This document shows, in pieces, positions 74 through 56,707 of a stretch of 64,000 nt of DNA. The position numbers and the translations under genes are program-made. Position 1 is the stretch's first letter. Every line of letters begins with the position of its first letter. Origin of the DNA: Candidatus Dojkabacteria bacterium. GTDB lineage: Bacteria > Patescibacteriota > Dojkabacteria > J137. The notes beneath the pieces are model-generated. The model saw only the letters and a list, made by a program, of their open reading frames with translations, ran no database searches and was not told where the DNA came from. The stretch is from positions 103,998-167,997 of the forward strand of contig JAUZRK010000001.1 in NCBI GenBank assembly GCA_030950485.1, written 5' to 3'.

Positions 74-1798
74 TCAAGAAAATTCAGTTGCACGTACATC
101 TTTCAATATAAGATTAATCTTCCTATTCCCATTCCATTCATTTATATCTAGATAGCCAGCTAGATCGAGAGTAGAGTAGTCTTTAATTTTAAACTTTTCT
201 TTAAAATTAAAACCAATAGCTTCTATTGGTGAGGACTCTGATTTTACAATAAATTTCAAATGCGTTTTATCCCTACCTATTTCTAATTTATCAATAATCT
301 CACACCCCATAAGAGCTACTGTTGGTTTAGCGTTACCATAGCCAAAAGGTTGTAGTAAATTCAATTTTTCTATTACTCCAAAGTCAAGATTTTTCAATGC
401 TATTACCCCGTCTATGCTTAGAGTTTCTTCAATATCTCCCTGACTTATTTCTTCATCAATATATTTTTTTAGATTCGTTGAAAAAGAATTGAGAGCAGAG
501 TAATCTAAACTAAAGCCAGCTGCGCCTGCATGACCTCCATGTCTAAGTAGGTCACTATCTAGCTCTTTAAGAGTTTCAGCCAAATTAAGATACCCAGGGC
601 TTCTTGCAGAACCCTTTAATATACCTTCATCAGTATTATAAGAACAAACAAATGTAGGTTTATTGTATTTTTGTGAAAGTTTTCCAGCTATTAGACCAAT
701 TATCCCTTCAGGCCAATTTTCTCCATATACAAGAATATGCTTATCCTGTTTATCAAGTTTAGCCTCAGCTTCTTCATAAACCTCTTTTGTAATATTTTGT
801 CTCCTTATATTTAATTCATTTAATTCGCCAGCATATTGCCTAGCGTGTTCTTCAGAACTAGTAGACAATAATCTAACTCCTCCCATAGCAGTTTCTAATC
901 GTCCGGCTGCATTTAATCTTGGGCCAATAATATATCCTAAATGATATGTTGAAGCTTCTTTAATATCTGAGCCTGCAATTTCAAACAGTGCATTAATTCC
1001 TGGATTAGTACTATTTTTCATCTTATCTAATCCAAGCTTTACGATAGCTCGATTTTCATCTATTAACGGCATAACATCACAAACTGTTCCTAAAGCTGCT
1101 AGTTCAAGATAGGAATTAGCATCAAAGTTTTTATCATAAATAATCCCATCTACTGAATTATTAGTTAAATATTTGGATATAGCTTTACAAACTTTCCAAG
1201 AAACTACCGCTCCACAAACCTCCTTGAAAGGGTAATCACCTAATTTCGGATGTACAACTGCTTTAGCGTATTTAGAAATTGCATATTCGCCTTCAATAAT
1301 AACTTTATCTTGTATTTCGTCAGCAACTTCAGAAGCATTTAGCAGAGTATGGTGGTCAGTTATTAAAAAATCAATTTTTTCTTTATACTTTTCAACTAGT
1401 AATACATCTTTAACTCCGCAATCAACAGTTATTATTAGCTCCCCTCCAGCTTCGATTATATTGCCTATTGATTCATCAGATAATCCGTATCCTTCATCAA
1501 ATCTACTTGGTATGTAGGGTACAACGTCAGCTCCCAATCTTCTGTATAAAAAGTCCCACATTATGCTAGTAGCTGTTATTCCATCGGCATCAAAATCTCC
1601 ATGTATAAGGATCTTTTTCTTATCCCTAACAGCACCTAGAATAGTATCTATAGCCTTATCAATATTAAGTAATAGAGTAGGGGAGTGAATCTGATCGAGA
1701 GTGGGATTTAAAAACCCATCTATATCATTTATATTTCTCTTAGATAACAAAAAGCTAAAGAAGTTATCCGAAGATTCTTCCGGTAATATCCATTTCAT
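74..1798 (-). CDS. recJ: single-stranded-DNA-specific exonuclease RecJ (DHH/DHHA1 family)
   Basis: 574 aa; DHH motifs HGDFDADGITA and ITDHH; length and overall architecture typical of RecJ. Confidence 0.8.
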   Translation of the reverse strand: MKWILPEESSDNFFSFLLSKRNINDIDGFLNPTLDQIHSPTLLLNIDKAIDTILGAVRDKKKILIHGDFDADGITATSIMWDFLYRRLGADVVPYIPSRFDEGYGLSDESIGNIIEAGGELIITVDCGVKDVLLVEKYKEKIDFLITDHHTLLNASEVADEIQDKVIIEGEYAISKYAKAVVHPKLGDYPFKEVCGAVVSWKVCKAISKYLTNNSVDGIIYDKNFDANSYLELAALGTVCDVMPLIDENRAIVKLGLDKMKNSTNPGINALFEIAGSDIKEASTYHLGYIIGPRLNAAGRLETAMGGVRLLSTSSEEHARQYAGELNELNIRRQNITKEVYEEAEAKLDKQDKHILVYGENWPEGIIGLIAGKLSQKYNKPTFVCSYNTDEGILKGSARSPGYLNLAETLKELDSDLLRHGGHAGAAGFSLDYSALNSFSTNLKKYIDEEISQGDIEETLSIDGVIALKNLDFGVIEKLNLLQPFGYGNAKPTVALMGCEIIDKLEIGRDKTHLKFIVKSESSPIEAIGFNFKEKFKIKDYSTLDLAGYLDINEWNGNRKINLILKDVRATEFS

Positions 1799-1852
1799 TG
1801 TAATAATTTTAAAATTACTTATAACAACTCGATATTATAAGAGATTTTAAAA

Positions 1853-2548
1853 CTAACTATTTTTAACTACATTACCCCCTTCAGAAACAAATCTATCTTC
1901 TTTATTTTCTTCAAATGCTTTAACTTCGTCCCTATCATACCATTTTAAGAATTTTTTTAGTCCATAAGTTGCAAATACAGCAGCTATTATTAACGTTACT
2001 GCAACTATACCTACAGTCCTAATTAAATTAGTAGTCTTTGCAGATTTATATTCATCAGTAATTGGAAGAATTTCCCCATCAATATTTGAGGCGTAATTTT
2101 TTCTTACAGTAACTACAAATGAATTATTTAATTCAAATGATTCAATTTTACCTATTAGTTCTGTAATACCTTGCCCAGTTGGTATAATTGTAATAGGGAG
2201 AATGTATTCACCTCCATCCTCTATACTTGTTACGCTTACTGAAGATTGTGGATATTTAAAGGCGCTCTTACCATCTAAAGTCCAAGTAACCCTAACTTTA
2301 TCTGAAGTCACTCTTGATGTCAGTTTTATTCCAAATTCTATTTCCTTACTTTTAGGGTCCTGTGTTTTTTGAAAAAATTCAGCTCTTAGTCCTGGTATGT
2401 CATCAATTACCGCATCAATATTCTCTTCACGCAGTATTTCTTCTGTTGGTTGCGAGTCTACTTGTGCTAAAAGTGGGGTAGCTAAGGAAAAACTTAGTAT
2501 GAACATTAGTAGCAGTGAAGTAGAAAATTTTTGAATATTTTTCGTCAT
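1853..2548 (-). CDS. hypothetical secreted protein with N-terminal signal peptide and C-terminal TM anchor
   Basis: hydrophobic N-terminus LLLMFILSFSLATPLLA, C-terminal TM helix IVAVTLIIAAVFATYGL. Confidence 0.5.
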   Translation of the reverse strand: MTKNIQKFSTSLLLMFILSFSLATPLLAQVDSQPTEEILREENIDAVIDDIPGLRAEFFQKTQDPKSKEIEFGIKLTSRVTSDKVRVTWTLDGKSAFKYPQSSVSVTSIEDGGEYILPITIIPTGQGITELIGKIESFELNNSFVVTVRKNYASNIDGEILPITDEYKSAKTTNLIRTVGIVAVTLIIAAVFATYGLKKFLKWYDRDEVKAFEENKEDRFVSEGGNVVKNS

Positions 2549-2921
2549 AGTTCATTCTAATGCTTAATGATTCATTTTTCTACAAATTTCTTATCACGTG
2601 AAATATTCTCGAAAGAATTCCTTGAAAACTTTAGCTTGTTTAGGATATAATCAACTAACGCTTTGAAGGAGAATACGTCGCTCCGGAGCACCAGAAAGAA
2701 AAGAGATAAGCAATAAGATAAAAGATTTAAGACAAAAATGTTCTTACTTCTTAGTTCTTATACCTTATTTCTTATTAGAAATTGGCGGGTAAGCCCGAGA
2801 AAGCTGTAATTAAGTGCCCATCTAAACAAAGTTTAGGTTGGGAAAAGGGGTGGTAACACCGTGACTTCATAGGTCCCCTAAAAGTTGAATTAAGATTTAA
2901 GTAATAAGATCTAAGACTTTT

Positions 2922-3284
2922 ATGGTGGACTTTACAAAACTAAACATCTGGATTCGTGCTAAGAATTTATCCGTTGAGATATATAGACTTACAGATGATT
3001 ATCCTAAAATAGAACAATTTGGCATCTCAAATCAAATGAGGCGAGCAGCGACTTCAGTTCCAGCAAATATATCTGAAGGGTGTAGCCGGGATTCTAAAAA
3101 AGATTTTTCTTATTTTTTAAGCATAAGCATTGGTTCACTAAATGAGATCTATACTTTTCTAGAAATCTTCTCAGATCTGAAATATCTACAATTAAGCAAG
3201 AAGAATACACTTATTAAAGAAATTAATGAACTTAAAAGCATGATCTATTCTTATAAAAAAAAACTTAAGACTAAGGAGTCTTAG
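2922..3284 (+). CDS. four-helix-bundle protein (23S rRNA intervening-sequence protein family)
   Basis: 120 aa, residues typical of TIGR02436-like proteins (..GSLNEIYTFLEI..); paralog at 43322-43687. Confidence 0.6.
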   Translation: MVDFTKLNIWIRAKNLSVEIYRLTDDYPKIEQFGISNQMRRAATSVPANISEGCSRDSKKDFSYFLSISIGSLNEIYTFLEIFSDLKYLQLSKKNTLIKEINELKSMIYSYKKKLKTKES

Positions 3285-3324
3285 ATCTTATGTCTTAAAT
3301 CTTATATCTTATATCTTTAAATAA

Positions 3325-6189
3325 ATGGCATTACCAAAAGGAGCTTACAATCCAAAAGAAAATGAACAAACTATACTTGATAGGTGGTTAGAAGCTTGTG
3401 CTTACAAACCCGAATATGATCCAAAGGAGAGCAGAGTAGTTAGTTTTGAGGAAATGAAAAATGATTCAAGAGAGGCGTGGAGTTTAATCTGTCCACCTCC
3501 AAATGCTTACGGAAGACCTCATATTGGAAATATTTCTGGATATGCATATATGGACGTAATGGCGAGATTTCAGAGAATGAATGGGAAAAAAGTTTTAGTT
3601 TTGCCAGGTAAAGACCATGCTGGTCTCGAAGGAGAGGGAGTATTCGTTAGAGAAGTACTTGAAAAGCAAAAAAGAGACAAATTCGACATGAAAAGAGAAG
3701 AGTTCTATTCAGAAATGATGGATTTCTTTGAAAACAATATGGATATTGCTATGAAAGATGAGAAAGAAATTGGACTTTCTGCAGATTTTGATAGAGATAC
3801 TTTTACACTTGACCCTGATATTGTAGAGACTGTTTTAGATACATTTGTTGAAATGTATAACGCAGGAATGATTTATAAGGGGGTTAGATTAATCAACTGG
3901 GATCCAAAGGCCAGAACTGCAGTTGCAGACAATCAAATACTTTATAAGGAATCAAAGACGCCTTTCTTTTATTTTAAGTATATTTATAAAACTGGAGACG
4001 AGAAAAGGGCCATTGAGCTGAAAAATGAATTTGAAGGAAAAGAGCTTGAATGGAACTATGAAAGAAATATGACAAAAGACGGGAAAGAGGATTTAACTTT
4101 TTCATATGGTCATTTGGATAATCTTGAGATTATGGGATATGGATACAGTAACGTCCAATCAGGAGACAAAATCAGGGGTAGAGTAGTGGGCATACAAATG
4201 AGGTTGGATAGTAAATACCGATTAGTGGTTATCCATCCTGACTATTCAGGAGACATCAAAAATGATATTGCTCAAACATTTTTATTCGAAGCAAAGTACT
4301 ACGCTGGAGCACACATTCTTTTATTCGAAGAGAATTCAAATGATTCAGATTATACAAATGGATTTGTAATTGGAACAGTACGACCTGAAACTGTATTTTC
4401 AGACACGGCAATAGCTTGTGATCCAAAAGATGAAAGATACAAAGAATTTGTTGGAAAAGAGGTTGAAGTAGAGTTCTTAGGAGAGAAGAAAAAATTAAAC
4501 TTCATTGCAGATTTTGCAGTTGATAAAGATTTTGGAACAGGTTTACTTAAGGTAACTCCAGCCCATGCAAAAGAAGACTGGGAGATTGCAAGCAGACATC
4601 CTGAAGAATGTTTACCTGCTATTCAGTGTATTAATTATGATTTAACAATGAATCATATATCTGGAGAGAAATATTCTGGTAAAAAGGCAAAACTTGTTAG
4701 AACTGAAATGAGAGAGGATATGTTAAAGAAGGGAAATCTTGTTTACGTTAATGATGAATACGAGAATAAAATACAGGTTGCAGAAAGAACTGAAGCCCCA
4801 ATCGAGCCTTTATTGTCTTCTCAGTGGTATTTAAGATACGACGGTATAAAGGAAGCTACAATTTTAATGGCGTTTAATGAGCATAATGATGATACAAATT
4901 TGGAACAGAGCAGAGAAGAACTGGAAGAGATATTGGAGAAATTCAATTCCGTAGGGGCAAATAATTATTTGCCCCTACGGAACGATTTACCCTTACAGAA
5001 GAGTTTACCTGAACAGAATGAAGATATTGAAACGAGAACAGATTCAAAGGCAACGAACCCGCAACCAGAGACCCATAACTCAGTTCACATACACCCCGAA
5101 ACAATGGTTCCAAAGTTTAATCATTGGATGAATAATTTAAGGGATTGGGCAATTTCAAGAAGTTTATGGTGGGGGTATAGATTGCCGGTTTGGTATTCAG
5201 GAGAGGTTAAGGAGGTTATTGATGAGAATGGACAGGTAAAGGAGTTGATTATGCAAAATGGTACATTTGTTGAATTAGAATATGCTAATCCAGAGCATAT
5301 TAAAGTACAGAAAGAATCACCTGGAGAAAGCTGGATCCAAGACGAAAACGTACTCGACACTTGGTTTAGTTCTGGGCAATGGGTTTATGCGACATTAAGA
5401 AAACATAATTTAATGGATGAATTTTTCCCATCAGACGTTATGGTTTCAGGTTTTGACATAATGGAGAATTGGATTAGTAGGATGATGATGTTTACTTATT
5501 TTAAAGAGAAGTCTATTCCGTTTAAGGATGTATATCTAACAGGATTGGTAAAAGGTACAGATGGACAGAAAATGAGTAAGTCAAAAGGTAACTTAATAAA
5601 CATTGACGAGGTTAGAGAAAAATACGGAACTGACGCGGTTAGAATGGTTTATTATTACCAAAATACTGCTGGTGCTGATTATGCAATGACTTATGAGAAG
5701 CTTGATACATTTAAGAAGTTTGTAAATAAGATTTGGAATGCGAGTAAATTCGTAGAGATGAATGTTGATGGCTCCGAAGGCGTAGGGACAAATAATAATT
5801 TGTCCTTACAAGATTTTCAATTGCCAGAGACAAAAGCCTTATTTAATCACATTCAAGAAATTAAAGAACAGATTACAAAGAATATTGAATCATTCGAGTT
5901 AGGTCATGCAACCTACAACCTTTATCATGGGTTCTGGCATGAATTTGCAGATGTCCATATTGAGGCTGTAAAGAAATATACTTATACTCAAAGAGATAAA
6001 GAAACAGGAGAGATAATTAGTGAGCCAAAGGCTGAAGAAAAAATTGAGGTGGGTAGAGTGTTGCTGTATGCTTTAAAGAATTACCTAAAAATGCTACATC
6101 CATTTATGCCATTTGTAACTCAAAGAATTTGGGATGAGTTAGAAAAGGAAGAGGGGGAGCATGAGTTTTTGATGTATTGCAAGTGGTAA
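3325..6189 (+). CDS. valS: valyl-tRNA synthetase (class I aaRS)
   Basis: 954 aa; HIGN-type motif PHIGNISGYAYMD, KMSKS motif GQKMSKSKGN, editing-domain-sized insert; carries an in-frame palindromic insertion at 4947-4983. Confidence 0.8.
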   Translation: MALPKGAYNPKENEQTILDRWLEACAYKPEYDPKESRVVSFEEMKNDSREAWSLICPPPNAYGRPHIGNISGYAYMDVMARFQRMNGKKVLVLPGKDHAGLEGEGVFVREVLEKQKRDKFDMKREEFYSEMMDFFENNMDIAMKDEKEIGLSADFDRDTFTLDPDIVETVLDTFVEMYNAGMIYKGVRLINWDPKARTAVADNQILYKESKTPFFYFKYIYKTGDEKRAIELKNEFEGKELEWNYERNMTKDGKEDLTFSYGHLDNLEIMGYGYSNVQSGDKIRGRVVGIQMRLDSKYRLVVIHPDYSGDIKNDIAQTFLFEAKYYAGAHILLFEENSNDSDYTNGFVIGTVRPETVFSDTAIACDPKDERYKEFVGKEVEVEFLGEKKKLNFIADFAVDKDFGTGLLKVTPAHAKEDWEIASRHPEECLPAIQCINYDLTMNHISGEKYSGKKAKLVRTEMREDMLKKGNLVYVNDEYENKIQVAERTEAPIEPLLSSQWYLRYDGIKEATILMAFNEHNDDTNLEQSREELEEILEKFNSVGANNYLPLRNDLPLQKSLPEQNEDIETRTDSKATNPQPETHNSVHIHPETMVPKFNHWMNNLRDWAISRSLWWGYRLPVWYSGEVKEVIDENGQVKELIMQNGTFVELEYANPEHIKVQKESPGESWIQDENVLDTWFSSGQWVYATLRKHNLMDEFFPSDVMVSGFDIMENWISRMMMFTYFKEKSIPFKDVYLTGLVKGTDGQKMSKSKGNLINIDEVREKYGTDAVRMVYYYQNTAGADYAMTYEKLDTFKKFVNKIWNASKFVEMNVDGSEGVGTNNNLSLQDFQLPETKALFNHIQEIKEQITKNIESFELGHATYNLYHGFWHEFADVHIEAVKKYTYTQRDKETGEIISEPKAEEKIEVGRVLLYALKNYLKMLHPFMPFVTQRIWDELEKEEGEHEFLMYCKW
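4947..4983. repeat. GC-rich perfect palindrome ttccgtaggggcaaataattatttgcccctacggaa embedded in-frame in valS (encodes SVGANNYLPLRN)
   Basis: perfect inverted repeat; same element recurs in two other genes. Confidence 0.8.
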
Positions 6190-48233: not shown

Positions 48234-48797
48234 CTAGACAACTTTTACATATATTCTAAATTCATACCTAATCTCACACTCTAAAACTCTAGTTACAAAT
48301 TTCTGACTTTTCTCTATCTTCCATATTGAATCATTAATTTCGGGGAAGAAAATATCACCTTCTATTTCATGATCTAAAACAGTTAAATATAACTTATCTG
48401 CTTTATCTATAAATTCATTATAAAGACTCGCACCTCCAAAAATAAAAATCTCTTCAGAACCAGGAGAGTTGTTTGCGATTTCTAAAGCGCTTTCAATATT
48501 ATTAGCTAATTGCCCCTCACCCGTTTCTAAATCACTATTTGAGCTAAGAATTATATTTGTTCTGCCTGGTAGAGTTTTTGGTTTATCTAATTTCTTTCCA
48601 TCTGAACCCTTAAATGATTTAAAACTAGAGATGGACTCGAAGTTCTTTCGCCCCATTATTATCGGATGTCCCATTGTAAGTTTTTTGGTTCGTTGATAGT
48701 CTTCAGTTATATGCCAAGGGATTGTATTACCCTTTCCTATAACATTATTTTTAGACATTGCTGCGATTATTGAAATCATTCTTTTTATTGATACCAA
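48234..48797 (-). CDS. folA: dihydrofolate reductase
   Basis: MISIIAAMSKNNVIGKGNTIPW and GRKNFESI motifs. Confidence 0.75.
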   Translation of the reverse strand: MVSIKRMISIIAAMSKNNVIGKGNTIPWHITEDYQRTKKLTMGHPIIMGRKNFESISSFKSFKGSDGKKLDKPKTLPGRTNIILSSNSDLETGEGQLANNIESALEIANNSPGSEEIFIFGGASLYNEFIDKADKLYLTVLDHEIEGDIFFPEINDSIWKIEKSQKFVTRVLECEIRYEFRIYVKVV

Positions 48798-48849
48798 TTC
48801 TATTTTACATCATGGGAAATATTAAGGCGAGTTTATGGTGTTGGTTCGG

Positions 48850-48905
48850 GCGACGATGAAGGCGACAATCATGATTGTCGCCTTCGGATAATTGCCGCCT
48901 TCATT
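48850..48905. promoter_or_regulatory. perfect 28-bp palindrome gaaggcgacaatcatgattgtcgccttc plus two extra half-sites (ggcgacgat, aattgccgccttc) in the folA / kinase divergent region
   Basis: GC-rich dyad symmetry in an AT-rich spacer; operator-like or hairpin. Confidence 0.45.
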
Positions 48906-48930
48906 AAAAAAGGTTAATGAAATATAATCA

Positions 48931-49962
48931 TTGAAAATGACTGAAAAATTAATAAAAAAAATATTAAAAAAATATGGATATGATGTTGTAAAAATATATC
49001 CAGAGCAATCAGGGTATCGTAATAAATCTTATGCGGTTGATGTGATGCATTTGTATGATTCTGTAAGGGCAAAAAATATTTTGCCCCTACAGAGAAAACG
49101 AAATTTGATCCTTTATAAAAATGAGCAAGGAATTATTAAAAAAATACAAAACGCAAACGCAGTTTCAAATTTCCTCGCAGAACAAGGCATTCCATCAAGA
49201 AAATCTCTTGGGAAAATAATTAGGTTGCATGATGAGAAAATAGAAAGATTCGCATGTTTGTACAACTATCTTCCAGGAGAAACCATTTCATGGGAAGCTT
49301 ACAATAAAGAACATATTAAACTATTAGGGAAGGCAATGAGCGATATGCATTTTTATTTAAAGGATTATTCTAAAAAGGATAAGTTGGAAAGTATTGATGA
49401 AATCATTAAAAACCAGGCGAATAAAATGATTCAATATTTTAAAAAAGAGGGTGTTAGAAATGCGATGGTTAGGAAATTGGGATTGATATGTAATATAAAT
49501 TTTATAAACAAATTCGTAGGGGCCGAAAATCTTCGGCCCCTACAAAACATATATTCAGATCAATCTATTCCCCTCCACATGGACCTCGTCCGTAGCAACG
49601 TTCTATTTGATTTAGATAAAAATAAAGACATATTTATTTCAGGAATCATAGATTTCGAAAAAGTAGCAAAGGGAAATCGAATATTTGATATCGCGAGAAC
49701 CTTGGCGTTTCTTCTTGTAGATTGTAAATATAAAGATCCAGTTAAAATTAGGAAATACTTTTTAATAAGTGGATATAAAAAAAGAGAGCTAGAAGATTTA
49801 CCAGATTTAACTCATTTAAACTATTTAATTTACTATTTTTTAACATACGATTTTTATAAATTCTTAAGACATAATCCTTATGAATCATTAAACTCGAATG
49901 AGCATTTTATTCGTACGAAAAACTTTTTACTAAGTAAAAAAATCCTGATAAGCTGTAGTTAA
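48931..49962 (+). CDS. APH/choline-kinase-like phosphotransferase
   Basis: Brenner motif HMDLVRSNVLFD and IIDFEK; carries two in-frame palindromic insertions. Confidence 0.6.
   Translation: MKMTEKLIKKILKKYGYDVVKIYPEQSGYRNKSYAVDVMHLYDSVRAKNILPLQRKRNLILYKNEQGIIKKIQNANAVSNFLAEQGIPSRKSLGKIIRLHDEKIERFACLYNYLPGETISWEAYNKEHIKLLGKAMSDMHFYLKDYSKKDKLESIDEIIKNQANKMIQYFKKEGVRNAMVRKLGLICNINFINKFVGAENLRPLQNIYSDQSIPLHMDLVRSNVLFDLDKNKDIFISGIIDFEKVAKGNRIFDIARTLAFLLVDCKYKDPVKIRKYFLISGYKKRELEDLPDLTHLNYLIYYFLTYDFYKFLRHNPYESLNSNEHFIRTKNFLLSKKILISCS
49061..49092. repeat. palindrome gtaagggcaaaaaatattttgcccctac embedded in-frame in the kinase gene (SVRAKNILPLQR)
   Basis: family A element, one arm mismatch. Confidence 0.7.
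49515..49546. repeat. palindrome gtaggggccgaaaatcttcggcccctac embedded in-frame in the kinase gene (VGAENLRPLQN)
   Basis: family A variant, perfect 12-bp arms. Confidence 0.7.
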
Positions 49963-50010
49963 CTTAGAACAAAAAAAGACTCTCCATTTTAAATATTTAC
50001 TTCAAAAAAA

Positions 50011-50589
50011 ATGGCTGAAAAAAAGAAGAGAACTAGTTTTAACTGGCGGACCAGACTCGCGGCGCAATCAGATTTAATGGATTTAGGAGAAAGGATTAGA
50101 GCAAAGAAAAAGAAAATAGTTTTTACAGCAGGAAACTGGGATTTACTTCATGTAGGACAAACTAGATATCTTCAAAAAGCTAAGGAATTAGGAGATGTAT
50201 TAGTCGTTGGAGTAGCTAGTGATATTGCTGTTAGAGAGAAGAAGGGAAAGAACAAGCCTATTTTAGGAGAATTAATTAGAGCCGAAATGTTAGCTAATAT
50301 TCGGTGGGTAGATTTTGTTACTATCTTTCCAGAGACAAGTTGCCAGCCATCTTTAGGACTTTTAAAACCAGATGTGTTTCTAACTGTTGTAGAAGATTGG
50401 AATACAGATTTTGAAAATTCCAAGGAGTATAAAACTGTAACTAGCTATGACGGGGAAGTTGTAAAAGCCGATAGGCAATCTCCATTTCTTTCAACAACAA
50501 AAATACTAGATAGAGCAATTGGAGGAAAGCTTAGCGATATGTTTAAAGATTTTATGGACTACAGAAAGGATCCGTTAAGAGAAAAATAA
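50011..50589 (+). CDS. HxGH cytidylyltransferase-like nucleotidyltransferase (RfaE-II/TagD/CCT-like fold)
   Basis: FTAGNWDLLHVGQTRYLQKAKELGDVLVVGVASD. Confidence 0.55.
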   Translation: MAEKKKRTSFNWRTRLAAQSDLMDLGERIRAKKKKIVFTAGNWDLLHVGQTRYLQKAKELGDVLVVGVASDIAVREKKGKNKPILGELIRAEMLANIRWVDFVTIFPETSCQPSLGLLKPDVFLTVVEDWNTDFENSKEYKTVTSYDGEVVKADRQSPFLSTTKILDRAIGGKLSDMFKDFMDYRKDPLREK

Positions 50590-55175: not shown

Positions 55176-56615
55176 CTACACTTTTATAATAAGCTTATTA
55201 TAAATATCAATATGCCCCTGGAGCATTTTTCTTAGAGTAAATTTATTCTCAAAGCTATCTCTACAAACGCTCCTATCAACTTGATTAATTTTCTCCATCA
55301 CTTCAACTAACTCATCGACAACCCTAGACTCACCATAATAGAAATCTCTCACCTTCTTCATCTTACTCTCATAATAACTCTTTCTCTTTTCCCGGTCAGA
55401 ATCATTAATAACAAAACCATTTTTCCCATTTTCTATCAGCTCTTTTGTAGCCCCATTATCTAAACCTATAACCGGAGTCCCACATGATAAGGCCTCTATA
55501 GTAACCATTCCAAACGGCTCCTTAAATATAGAAGGTACTAACAACGCCTTAGCATTCCCTAAAAATTTCTGCTTAGCTTTGTCGCCTGAAACGTATCCAA
55601 CGTATTCAACTGTATCATTTAGTTCAGGCGCAATTACAGAATTCCAATATGAATCATTCGACTCATCTGAATAATGCTTTCCTGCAATCTTTAGAGTTAC
55701 GGGTTTCGAGTTTCGGGTTGCGAGTTCCTCATTATATTTTTTTACTGCAGCTATTGCGTAGTGGACCCCTTTTGGTTCAATTATTCTCCCGAGATAAGCA
55801 AAATATTCTGTATCATTTTGGCCAGCAGGAGCAGGACTTGGCTCACCAGCTGGAGATGGGTTGTACCCTGGTCCTAAATATTTTGGCTTAAACCTTTTTT
55901 CATCAATTCCATGATAAACATTCCCAACCCAATTCGTATCATCCGGCATATCTTCTCTTTGAGATAGAGACATTGAGATAAAATTTCTATCTTTATATTT
56001 CGGTAAAATAGTTCGATATTTCGTTAGAAAAGAGTAGGGATCATGATGCGTAAATACAACTGGCTTATTACAAAGCCCGCTCATCTCAAGTGCGATCTGT
56101 TCTTCCAACATGTAAACATGAACAATATCAAACATATCATCATTAGCCATTTCGTAGGCTTTGGCTATTATTTCAGATTGAAAATGTCTAGAGAGAGTAG
56201 TGAACAGTAAGGGATGTTTTTTAAGGAGTTCTTTTAGACCGTAACCCCTAGTTTCCAGTTCTTCTTTCAGTAGGGTTTGGTCTGCGGTGATGTTTTTTAC
56301 GGTAGGGGCAAAATATCTTTTACCTTTACTCTTTTTTGTTGGATCAAAAAATCTTTTGCCCTTACTGTTATCTCGACCAACAACCCCAGGCGAAAACAAC
56401 GTAACCTCAGCTCCTGCCTCGGCAAGACCATTTGCAAGATCAATAGCAAGATCTCCCGGAGAAAATATATTATCAGACATCAATTCATCCGACATAAAAA
56501 TATGCGGACAAACGAATGCAATTCGTATTGGAAAATTAGGGGCTGTCATCTGCTCTCGTAGGGGCAAAATATTTTTTGCCCCTACGGATTCGATTACATT
56601 ATTTTTCTTCCTCAT
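55176..56615 (-). CDS. GT4-family glycosyltransferase with several in-frame repeat insertions
   Basis: EPFGMVTIEALSCGTPVIGLDNG near the C-terminus; family A palindromes at 56293-56368 and 56557-56586; family C repeat at 55694-55726. Confidence 0.6.
   Translation of the reverse strand: MRKKNNVIESVGAKNILPLREQMTAPNFPIRIAFVCPHIFMSDELMSDNIFSPGDLAIDLANGLAEAGAEVTLFSPGVVGRDNSKGKRFFDPTKKSKGKRYFAPTVKNITADQTLLKEELETRGYGLKELLKKHPLLFTTLSRHFQSEIIAKAYEMANDDMFDIVHVYMLEEQIALEMSGLCNKPVVFTHHDPYSFLTKYRTILPKYKDRNFISMSLSQREDMPDDTNWVGNVYHGIDEKRFKPKYLGPGYNPSPAGEPSPAPAGQNDTEYFAYLGRIIEPKGVHYAIAAVKKYNEELATRNSKPVTLKIAGKHYSDESNDSYWNSVIAPELNDTVEYVGYVSGDKAKQKFLGNAKALLVPSIFKEPFGMVTIEALSCGTPVIGLDNGATKELIENGKNGFVINDSDREKRKSYYESKMKKVRDFYYGESRVVDELVEVMEKINQVDRSVCRDSFENKFTLRKMLQGHIDIYNKLIIKV
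56557..56586. repeat. palindrome cgtaggggcaaaatattttttgcccctacgg in-frame in the GT4 gene (ESVGAKNILPLRE)
   Basis: family A element; degenerate copies at 56293-56330 and 56343-56368. Confidence 0.75.
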
Positions 56616-56707
56616 CTAGAAAATCTAGATCTAGTTCATCAGAAAGACCTTCTTCGTTGTAATCGTATGTATCTGTATCAGCCATATTTTTGTTTTAATA
56701 TAAAATA

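Follow-up and report, generated by a model that had tools for sequence, protein, structure and literature searches.

REP-associated tyrosine transposases (RAYT, also called TnpA_REP) are a domesticated family of HUH/Y1 transposases which bind and cleave the single-stranded hairpins of repetitive extragenic palindromes (REPs) and are thought to copy them. Quentin et al. (2018, PMC6006769) distinguished a TnpA_Y1 subclass 2.4, with motifs NH[IFV]H, WQ and YIxNNP and a median length of 194 aa, which occurs in Cyanobacteria, Bacteroidetes and scattered other phyla; its patchy distribution was attributed to horizontal transfer. The REPs of this subclass are of a "double foot" type (5' GT[AG]G and 3' C[TC]AC), and this subclass is unique in having REPs in frame inside the tnpA_REP gene itself. 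Here, we analyzed a 64 kb stretch of Candidatus Dojkabacteria DNA (hereafter, the window), in which a kinase gene of the APH family had been predicted, from the sequence alone, to carry two related palindromes. The data suggest, with a probability of about 0.8, that these palindromes are double-foot GTAG REPs, carried as in-frame passengers in coding sequences of this member of the candidate phyla radiation (CPR).

The other closely related class is the GTAG REP superfamily (Di Nocera et al. 2013, PMC3733652), in which a GTAG tag, located at one end of the element and unpaired, lies beside a 5–13 bp stem with a short loop. Intragenic, in-frame members of this superfamily have been listed, including some in tRNA synthetase genes and some present twice in one open reading frame (ORF), and the same authors cautioned that REPs at annotated N-termini may truly be extragenic. 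They also described two Rickettsia palindromic elements, RPE-4 and RPE-6, as short intragenic REPs of the CGTC type, a type for which no associated transposase gene was found.

Repeat and pattern searches of the window detected six copies of one palindrome family (A–F), two apiece at the genes for valyl-tRNA synthetase (ValRS; A and F), the kinase (B and C) and a GT4 glycosyltransferase (D and E). The kinase pair of the original prediction is not special, being two of six family members. In the window, whose GC content is 32%, the octamer GCCCCTAC was counted 8 times versus 0.20 expected; this is a 40-fold enrichment over shuffles, and none of 100 shuffles reached the observed number. The five simple copies have stems of 12–18 bp, 4-nt loops and folding energies of -18.9 to -27.7 kcal/mol (z = -6.2 to -8.2), and the z-scores of all hairpins tested ranged from -3.9 to -8.2. 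For the two kinase copies, B and C, the RNA folding z-scores versus dinucleotide shuffles were -6.2 and -7.7, respectively, with 0/200 shuffles equaling them. A literature search with the octamers returned only primer and promoter noise. Two other classes of repeats were considered and rejected: CRISPR repeats, given the irregular spacings and the lack of an array, and integron attC sites, whose core sites differ.

All copies are built on GTAG...CTAC feet, with GGGC/GCCC coming straight after the foot. The feet are intact in A, C and E; one end reads GTAA in B and D and TTAC in F, each through one G->A or C->T substitution. Indeed, all departures from the consensus in B, D and F are G->A or C->T, the direction of decay expected for a genome of 32% GC. 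Copy C has compensatory changes in both arms (AA->CG paired with TT->CG), and copy F has one compensated G:C->A:T stem pair in addition to its one mutated foot. In both copies the opposite arm carries the matching change, so conservation concerns the hairpin rather than the peptide. One frame, reading G-TAG, is closed by its stop, so the frames left are V-G-A..L-P-L, used by five copies, and R-G-K..A-P-T, used by one. With two frames open, this bias (5/6 copies) is not significant (binomial P ~0.11), and neither is the location of six of six copies within ORFs at a coding density of ~86% (P = 0.39). Pairing within genes, on the other hand, exceeded chance in simulations on the real ORF map, both when counted as three same-gene pairs (P = 0.006) and as three neighbor gaps of <=850 bp (P = 0.003).

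The kinase gene (48937–49962, + strand) codes for a 341 aa APH-family phosphotransferase (Pfam PF01636, E = 1.4e-10), which is 100% identical to a protein named phosphotransferase of Candidatus Dojkabacteria by NCBI; the next best homolog is 52% identical. Both predicted palindromes are present in this gene, fold strongly and beyond chance, and belong to one repeat family. Copy B (49063–49090, GTAAGGGCAAAAAATATTTTGCCCCTAC, -18.9 kcal/mol) has one A.C stem mismatch and a 5' foot changed from GTAG to GTAA, its palindrome reaches 49060–49093, and its frame reads V-R-A..L-P-L. Copy C (49516–49543, GTAGGGGCCGAAAATCTTCGGCCCCTAC, -24.3 kcal/mol) is a perfect 12-bp stem with a 4-nt loop and both feet intact; it is a CG-for-AA variant of the stem, and its frame reads V-G-A..R-P-L. 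As had been proposed, both are in frame, and the peptides are those given in the prediction: SVRAKNILPLQR for copy B (residues 42–53) and VGAENLRPLQN for copy C (residues 194–204). On the antisense strand, copy C (49513–49546, - strand) followed by TTTGTTTATA fits a simple intrinsic-terminator consensus and is the sole such site in 48700–50100.

Comparison with homologs revealed that copy B corresponds to a 13-residue insertion, missing in 24/24 aligned homologs (47–54% identity). The stretch that holds copy C is the least conserved of the family and has, on balance, 3 to 6 more residues than in homologs. Neither peptide was detected in any of 119 kinase homologs, so the claim also withstood the comparison that could have turned it into an ordinary family feature, and a REP-type peptide was likewise found in 0/238 other kinase and glycosyltransferase homologs fetched. 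To place the two sites, we used an AlphaFold2 model of the kinase built from a 25-sequence alignment (mean pLDDT, the predicted local confidence, 89.3; predicted template modeling score, pTM, 0.88). In this model, the copy B residues form the tip of a beta2-beta3 hairpin, between strands 29–38 and 54–61, the latter bearing the invariant K61, and the 10-residue block 41–50 has the lowest pLDDT of the model (60). The copy C residues lie in two short helices just ahead of the catalytic HMDLVRSN (214–221), in blocks with pLDDT of 73 and 66. As for whether the sites flank the catalytic core, in the model they lie on either side of the N-lobe strand with K61, and both are upstream of the catalytic HxD loop. 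Both sites are lower-confidence segments, which may be read as peripheral, and their placement would speak for tolerance of the insertions rather than for a function.

The gene for the GT4 glycosyltransferase (55176–56615, - strand) contains copy D, and copy E lies at the 5' end of the gene as annotated. Copy D (56299–56368) is a rearranged element of ~70 nt with a duplicated left arm, reading on the gene strand GTAAGGGCAAAAGATTTTTT, 16 nt and GTAAAGGTAAAAGATATTTTGCCCCTAC; it uses the other open frame (peptide NSKGKRFFDPTKKSKGKRYFAPT) and constitutes a clean 23-residue insertion, missing in 21/21 aligned glycosyltransferase homologs. Copy E (56558–56585, GTAGGGGCAAAATATTTTTTGCCCCTAC) is a perfect palindrome (-23.0 kcal/mol). 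Most of the 21 aligned homologs begin ~0–10 residues ahead of a conserved motif, R[VI]A[LF]VVPHIF, that falls at Met23 of the ORF (MTAPNFPIRIAF) in the alignment, and the copy E hairpin ends 6 nt upstream of the Met23 ATG and ~15 nt past the stop of a 28-codon ORF. Judging from these alignments, the ATG at 56551 is probably the true start of the glycosyltransferase, and the 22 annotated N-terminal residues would be untranslated. The 28-codon ORF is an acidic mini-ORF, MADTDTYDYNEEGLSDELDLDFLDEEEK (56600–56686, - strand), which ends just upstream of copy E; the annotated glycosyltransferase start (56615) overlaps it in another frame. Elsewhere in this protein, residues ~247–268 form a proline-rich stretch, GPGYNPSPAGEPSPAPAGQND, which has no palindrome and is missing in most homologs; in P0122 and P0197 this position is occupied by unrelated inserts, which makes it a second permissive site.

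The ValRS gene (3325–6189, + strand; match to 1GAX, E = 1e-96) carries copies A and F. Copy A (4951–4978, GTAGGGGCAAATAATTATTTGCCCCTAC) is the core of a perfect 36-nt palindrome spanning 4947–4982 (-27.7 kcal/mol) and encodes SVGANNYLPLR; a partial, degenerate duplicate of its right arm, ATTTACCCTTAC, follows at 4985–4996 (+ strand; peptide NDLPLQK). It is located inside ValRS residues 511–598, which correspond to chain residues 369–390 of Thermus thermophilus ValRS (1GAX) and include ~66 extra residues. Copy F (5782–5809, GTAGGGACAAATAATAATTTGTCCTTAC, peptide VGTNNNLSLQ) is a decayed relative of A and is located where the 1GAX chain has 2- and 6-residue gaps in the ValRS alignment. Directly upstream of ValRS, at 2922–3284, is a gene of the 23S rRNA-intervening-sequence protein family (PF05635).

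To examine whether the element occurs elsewhere, we scanned one genome per GTDB species with the exact pattern GTAGGGGCAAANNNNNNTTTGCCCCTAC, which has 22 fixed bases. At least 119 loci in many phyla were detected, with a rough chance expectation of ~0.03. Among the matches listed, the hosts include many cyanobacteria, Bacteroidales, Fibrobacteria (60–70% GC), Desulfarculales, Geobacter, Nitrotoga, Nitrosomonas, Moraxellaceae, Chlorobium, Chloroflexi-type lineages and Marinamargulisbacteria, and several are cultured isolates (Capnocytophaga canis CcD38, Sphingobacterium wenxiniae DSM 22789 and Nodosilinea strains). The commonest interior among these matches, AAATAATTATTT (26 copies), is identical to that of copy A, and other recurrent interiors are AAATGGCCATTT, AAACGGCCGTTT and AAAAGATTTTTT, the last being of the copy D type. 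Overall, the A and E types are identical, and D is closely similar, to 28-mers of many phyla, and the stem type of copy C (GTAGGGGCCGAA..TTCGGCCCCTAC) was found in four unrelated metagenome contigs of 42–74% GC. These types therefore existed beforehand, as parts of a widespread element that has already been described, and were not invented locally. The second palindrome of the original prediction is indeed a stem variant, compensated on both arms, but a family evolving within this gene is not the simplest reading of it.

The other listed loci use both open frames (47 versus 33). The clustering seen in the window has a counterpart in other genomes, where 18/37 adjacent gaps were <=850 bp versus 9.8 expected (P = 0.0045). 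Analysis of 123 non-redundant copy flanks yielded no target motif; purines were weakly favored after CTAC, and extended complementarity was usually absent. Several additional features of these loci were observed. Identical 28-mers, such as GTAGGGGCAAATAATTATTTGCCCCTAC, occur in genomes of 33–70% GC in many phyla. Partial one-arm duplicates are often present beside copies elsewhere too (loci L041, L043, L045, L051 and L087), and often a larger inverted repeat flanks the copy, which sits at its tip (L005, L045/L083, L081, L110 and L111). In Nodosilinea, Leptolyngbya and relatives, the interior AAACGGCCGTTT is the center of a longer conserved repeat with flanks like GGTATGAATCAAGC on both sides, and such composite repeats were found at L012, L015, L019, L037, L049, L055, L072, L102 and L104–L106. 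In IMG/VR, five viral contigs have the pattern (L123–L127), and one of them (L125) has three copies, which read VGAKDLLPL and lie within long open frames. Transfer between hosts could take place through phages or prophage regions.

ORF clustering connected the element with its likely enzyme. Eight of the at least 119 loci code for a Y1 transposase of ~190 residues with motifs MPNH[IVF]H, WQRNYYEH and YIQTNP/YIENNP, and one representative matched the NCBIfam model NF047646, "REP-associated tyrosine transposase" (E = 1e-18). A Pfam scan of two of these RAYT-like ORFs, one of which NCBIfam did recognize, found no family, probably because an in-frame REP insert splits the domain. In three loci (L030, L041 and L103), the 28-mer was present on both sides of the transposase gene and also in frame within it, between the HuH and Tyr motifs. 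This REPtron arrangement, in which the repeat both flanks and interrupts the tnpA_REP gene, was observed in other genomes and not in the Dojkabacteria genome. Beside the REPtron of L030, a Geobacter metagenome-assembled genome, an HsdR ORF (658–3981, - strand) has three in-frame copies, with VGAKNLLPLQ twice and VGANDYLPLR once. In addition, RAYT-like genes in Nitrosomonas (L077, 218–997; L085, 3397–4119) and in L050 and L101 have other palindrome-type peptides at the same internal position, such as VGARCTRP... and GVCNTPL..., which suggests that each transposase gene carries its own REP type inside.

With the double-foot REPs of subclass 2.4 (PMC6006769), the copies in the window share the feet, a long GC-based stem that starts from the foot, dispersed copies and frames kept open, and the 28-mers identical to them flank and interrupt genes with subclass 2.4 motifs in the three loci just described. 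They differ in host, a Dojkabacteria (CPR) bacterium, a group found neither in that survey nor in the literature searched; in that no cognate tnpA_REP is visible on the contig; and in that at least 5/6 copies are in ordinary housekeeping genes, not beside or in a transposase gene. The GTAG REP superfamily (PMC3733652) is similar in having subfamilies with compensatory stem changes and intragenic in-frame copies. However, the tag here is mirrored at both ends and paired, GTAG pairing with CTAC in every copy in the centroid structures, and whereas intragenic copies are a minority there, no clearly intergenic copy was found here save copy E, whose probable leader position is considered below. The word "extragenic" in the name of these elements does not describe A, B, C, D and F, which are inside homology-confirmed ORFs.

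Rickettsia palindromic elements show the same behavior, in that in-frame palindromes in genes of a small AT-rich genome add surface peptides while the protein is kept. Ogata and colleagues reportedly described such in-frame elements in Rickettsia protein genes in 2000. RPE-1 elements are roughly 100–150 bp. RPE-4 and RPE-6 have a CGTC tag versus the GTAG/CTAC feet and 28-nt length seen here, and the likeness is in behavior only, with no sequence relationship. The REPIN-RAYT systems of Bertels and Rainey also comprise non-autonomous hairpins which need a single-copy RAYT and consist of two inverted GTAG-bearing halves. REPINs are two REPs with a spacer, extragenic and reportedly mostly inherited vertically, whereas the 28-mers here are identical across many phyla. 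Such cross-phylum identity fits a horizontally spread subclass 2.4.

We propose the following scenario. A subclass 2.4 RAYT would recognize the GTAG foot of a single-stranded hairpin, cleave it and copy the element; the foot is present on both strands of the element. Copies would have landed in coding sequences of the Dojkabacteria genome, where intragenic ones would persist only with an open frame and with 8–23 extra residues in permissive surface segments, and they would then decay by G/C -> A/T changes under AT pressure. Several parts of this proposal are direct observations: the palindromes are real and non-random, and they are insertions relative to homologs, clearly so for B and D. The insertion sites in the kinase appear permissive in the structural model, and by sequence comparison the 28-mers are identical to REPtron-associated REPs of other genomes. 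From these data we infer past or continuing action of a RAYT in this genome or lineage, and that the copies are passengers rather than functional parts of the kinase. The insertions would then be neutral, and the two-per-gene pattern may reflect new copies arising near old ones by short-range spread.

A number of findings weigh against this proposal. No tnpA_REP gene was found in the window or in the 70.8-kb contig JAUZSD010000008.1 (GCA_030949735.1), the one contig of the genome covered by the analysis and represented almost entirely by the window; tblastn of the window with nine RAYT-like ORFs returned palindrome peptides only, and the 6.7 kb by which the contig extends past the window contain no further copies. 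None of the 119 matches listed is from Patescibacteria, and non-IS (insertion sequence) tnpA_Y1 genes occur mainly in large genomes (PMC6006769), CPR genomes being small. We also found no literature report of REP or RAYT systems in Patescibacteria/CPR. At the level of individual copies, copy C is not delimitable as an insertion, and copy E is probably in the 5' leader, and hence not coding, because the homolog starts align with Met23 and the hairpin precedes that ATG; this is the kind of annotation error of which Di Nocera et al. cautioned. The databases contain no close relative with an empty site, the best homologs being 50–52% identical. Finally, transposition of a REP by any RAYT has never been directly demonstrated, and the literature words it with "might" and "hypothesized".

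The absence of a RAYT from the contig is in line with a variant in which the copies are relics, mobilized in an ancestor or brought in with transferred DNA, in a lineage that now has no RAYT and nothing active. This variant, which we consider possible though doubtful, is also consistent with the mutated foot or rearrangement in 3/6 copies and with the usual absence of non-IS tnpA_Y1 genes from small genomes (PMC6006769). However, A, C and E are perfect palindromes with intact feet although AT pressure in this genome is strong, and this would indicate that they arose recently or are being maintained. The relic scenario is a variant of the double-foot REP explanation, and not another identity for the element. 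A more speculative version, to which we attach a rather low probability, is that the hairpins are active in a CPR bacterium possibly without its own RAYT, for example trans-mobilized or acquired from a host bacterium, and may spread preferentially over short ranges within genes. If this were true, double-foot REPs would be a general source of in-frame protein insertions across phyla, and housekeeping proteins would repeatedly gain pairs of surface peptides.

Readings in which the element has a function of its own were also considered. As RNA, the hairpins have high stability (-19 to -28 kcal/mol), copy C in antisense is terminator-like (a hairpin followed by the TTTGTTTATA mentioned above), copy E lies 6 nt before the probable glycosyltransferase start and could affect initiation, and Di Nocera et al. 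argued that many REPs are RNA elements (PMC3733652); it might thus be supposed that the hairpins are mRNA elements within coding sequences, kept by selection for ribosome pausing, for a block to RNase or for antisense termination. We consider this improbable, as neither hairpin nor peptide occurs at these positions in any of the 238 homologs, other phyla have the same 28-mers both within unrelated genes and between genes, and half of the copies (B, D and F) are decaying. Moreover, no Rfam 15 family matched the window at gathering score, nor 48800–49700 at E <= 1, and the sense strand has no terminator-type T run at any copy and no terminator in 48700–50100. Selection might instead act on the encoded peptide, V-G-A-x-N-x-L-P-L-Q/R, as a linear motif or targeting signal acquired repeatedly, given that 5/6 copies in the window use one frame and that HsdR and RAYT proteins from other phyla contain this peptide as well. 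This appears very unlikely: the preference for one frame is not significant when only two are open (P ~0.11), other loci use both (47 versus 33 among the matches listed), and copy D is in the other frame. Stem complementarity is conserved at the DNA level, with the compensatory changes in C and F altering the peptide, and the pLDDT of the sites is below that of the rest of the kinase model. That the palindromes arose by chance of composition, or as an assembly or sequencing artifact, has nothing in its favor except that the source is a metagenome-assembled genome; the 40-fold enrichment over shuffles, the in-frame position of the copies within conserved genes and the identical elements in cultured isolates leave it a negligible chance.

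The class of element is already described and no new mechanism is involved. The new points are the host clade, a location on this contig that is almost exclusively coding, and the presence of two copies per gene. The hosts of double-foot REPs now appear to include the candidate phyla radiation, which is unexpected in small genomes, and GC-rich palindromes translated in essential genes of an AT-rich minimal genome would be explained by a known class of mobile element. As members of a described class, such palindromes can be masked or flagged by annotators and need not be read as motifs. Copies B and D are also clean natural cases in which an APH-type kinase tolerates 13 inserted residues and a GT4 glycosyltransferase tolerates 23; the insertions at C in the kinase and at A and F in ValRS are smaller or have less clear limits. 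Studies of the RAYT mechanism may profit from the statistically supported two-per-gene clustering and from the identity of 28-mers across phyla in genomes of 33–70% GC.

A palindrome of a different kind was noted upstream of the kinase gene. DHFR and kinase genes are divergent here, and the DNA that separates them contains, at 48858–48902, a perfect 28-nt palindrome (GAAGGCGACAATCA|TGATTGTCGCCTTC) and a slightly divergent third half-site (GAAGGCGGCAATTA). This arrangement has no relationship to the GTAG family and, being present at a single place in the window, was rejected as a second repeat family. It may be an operator.

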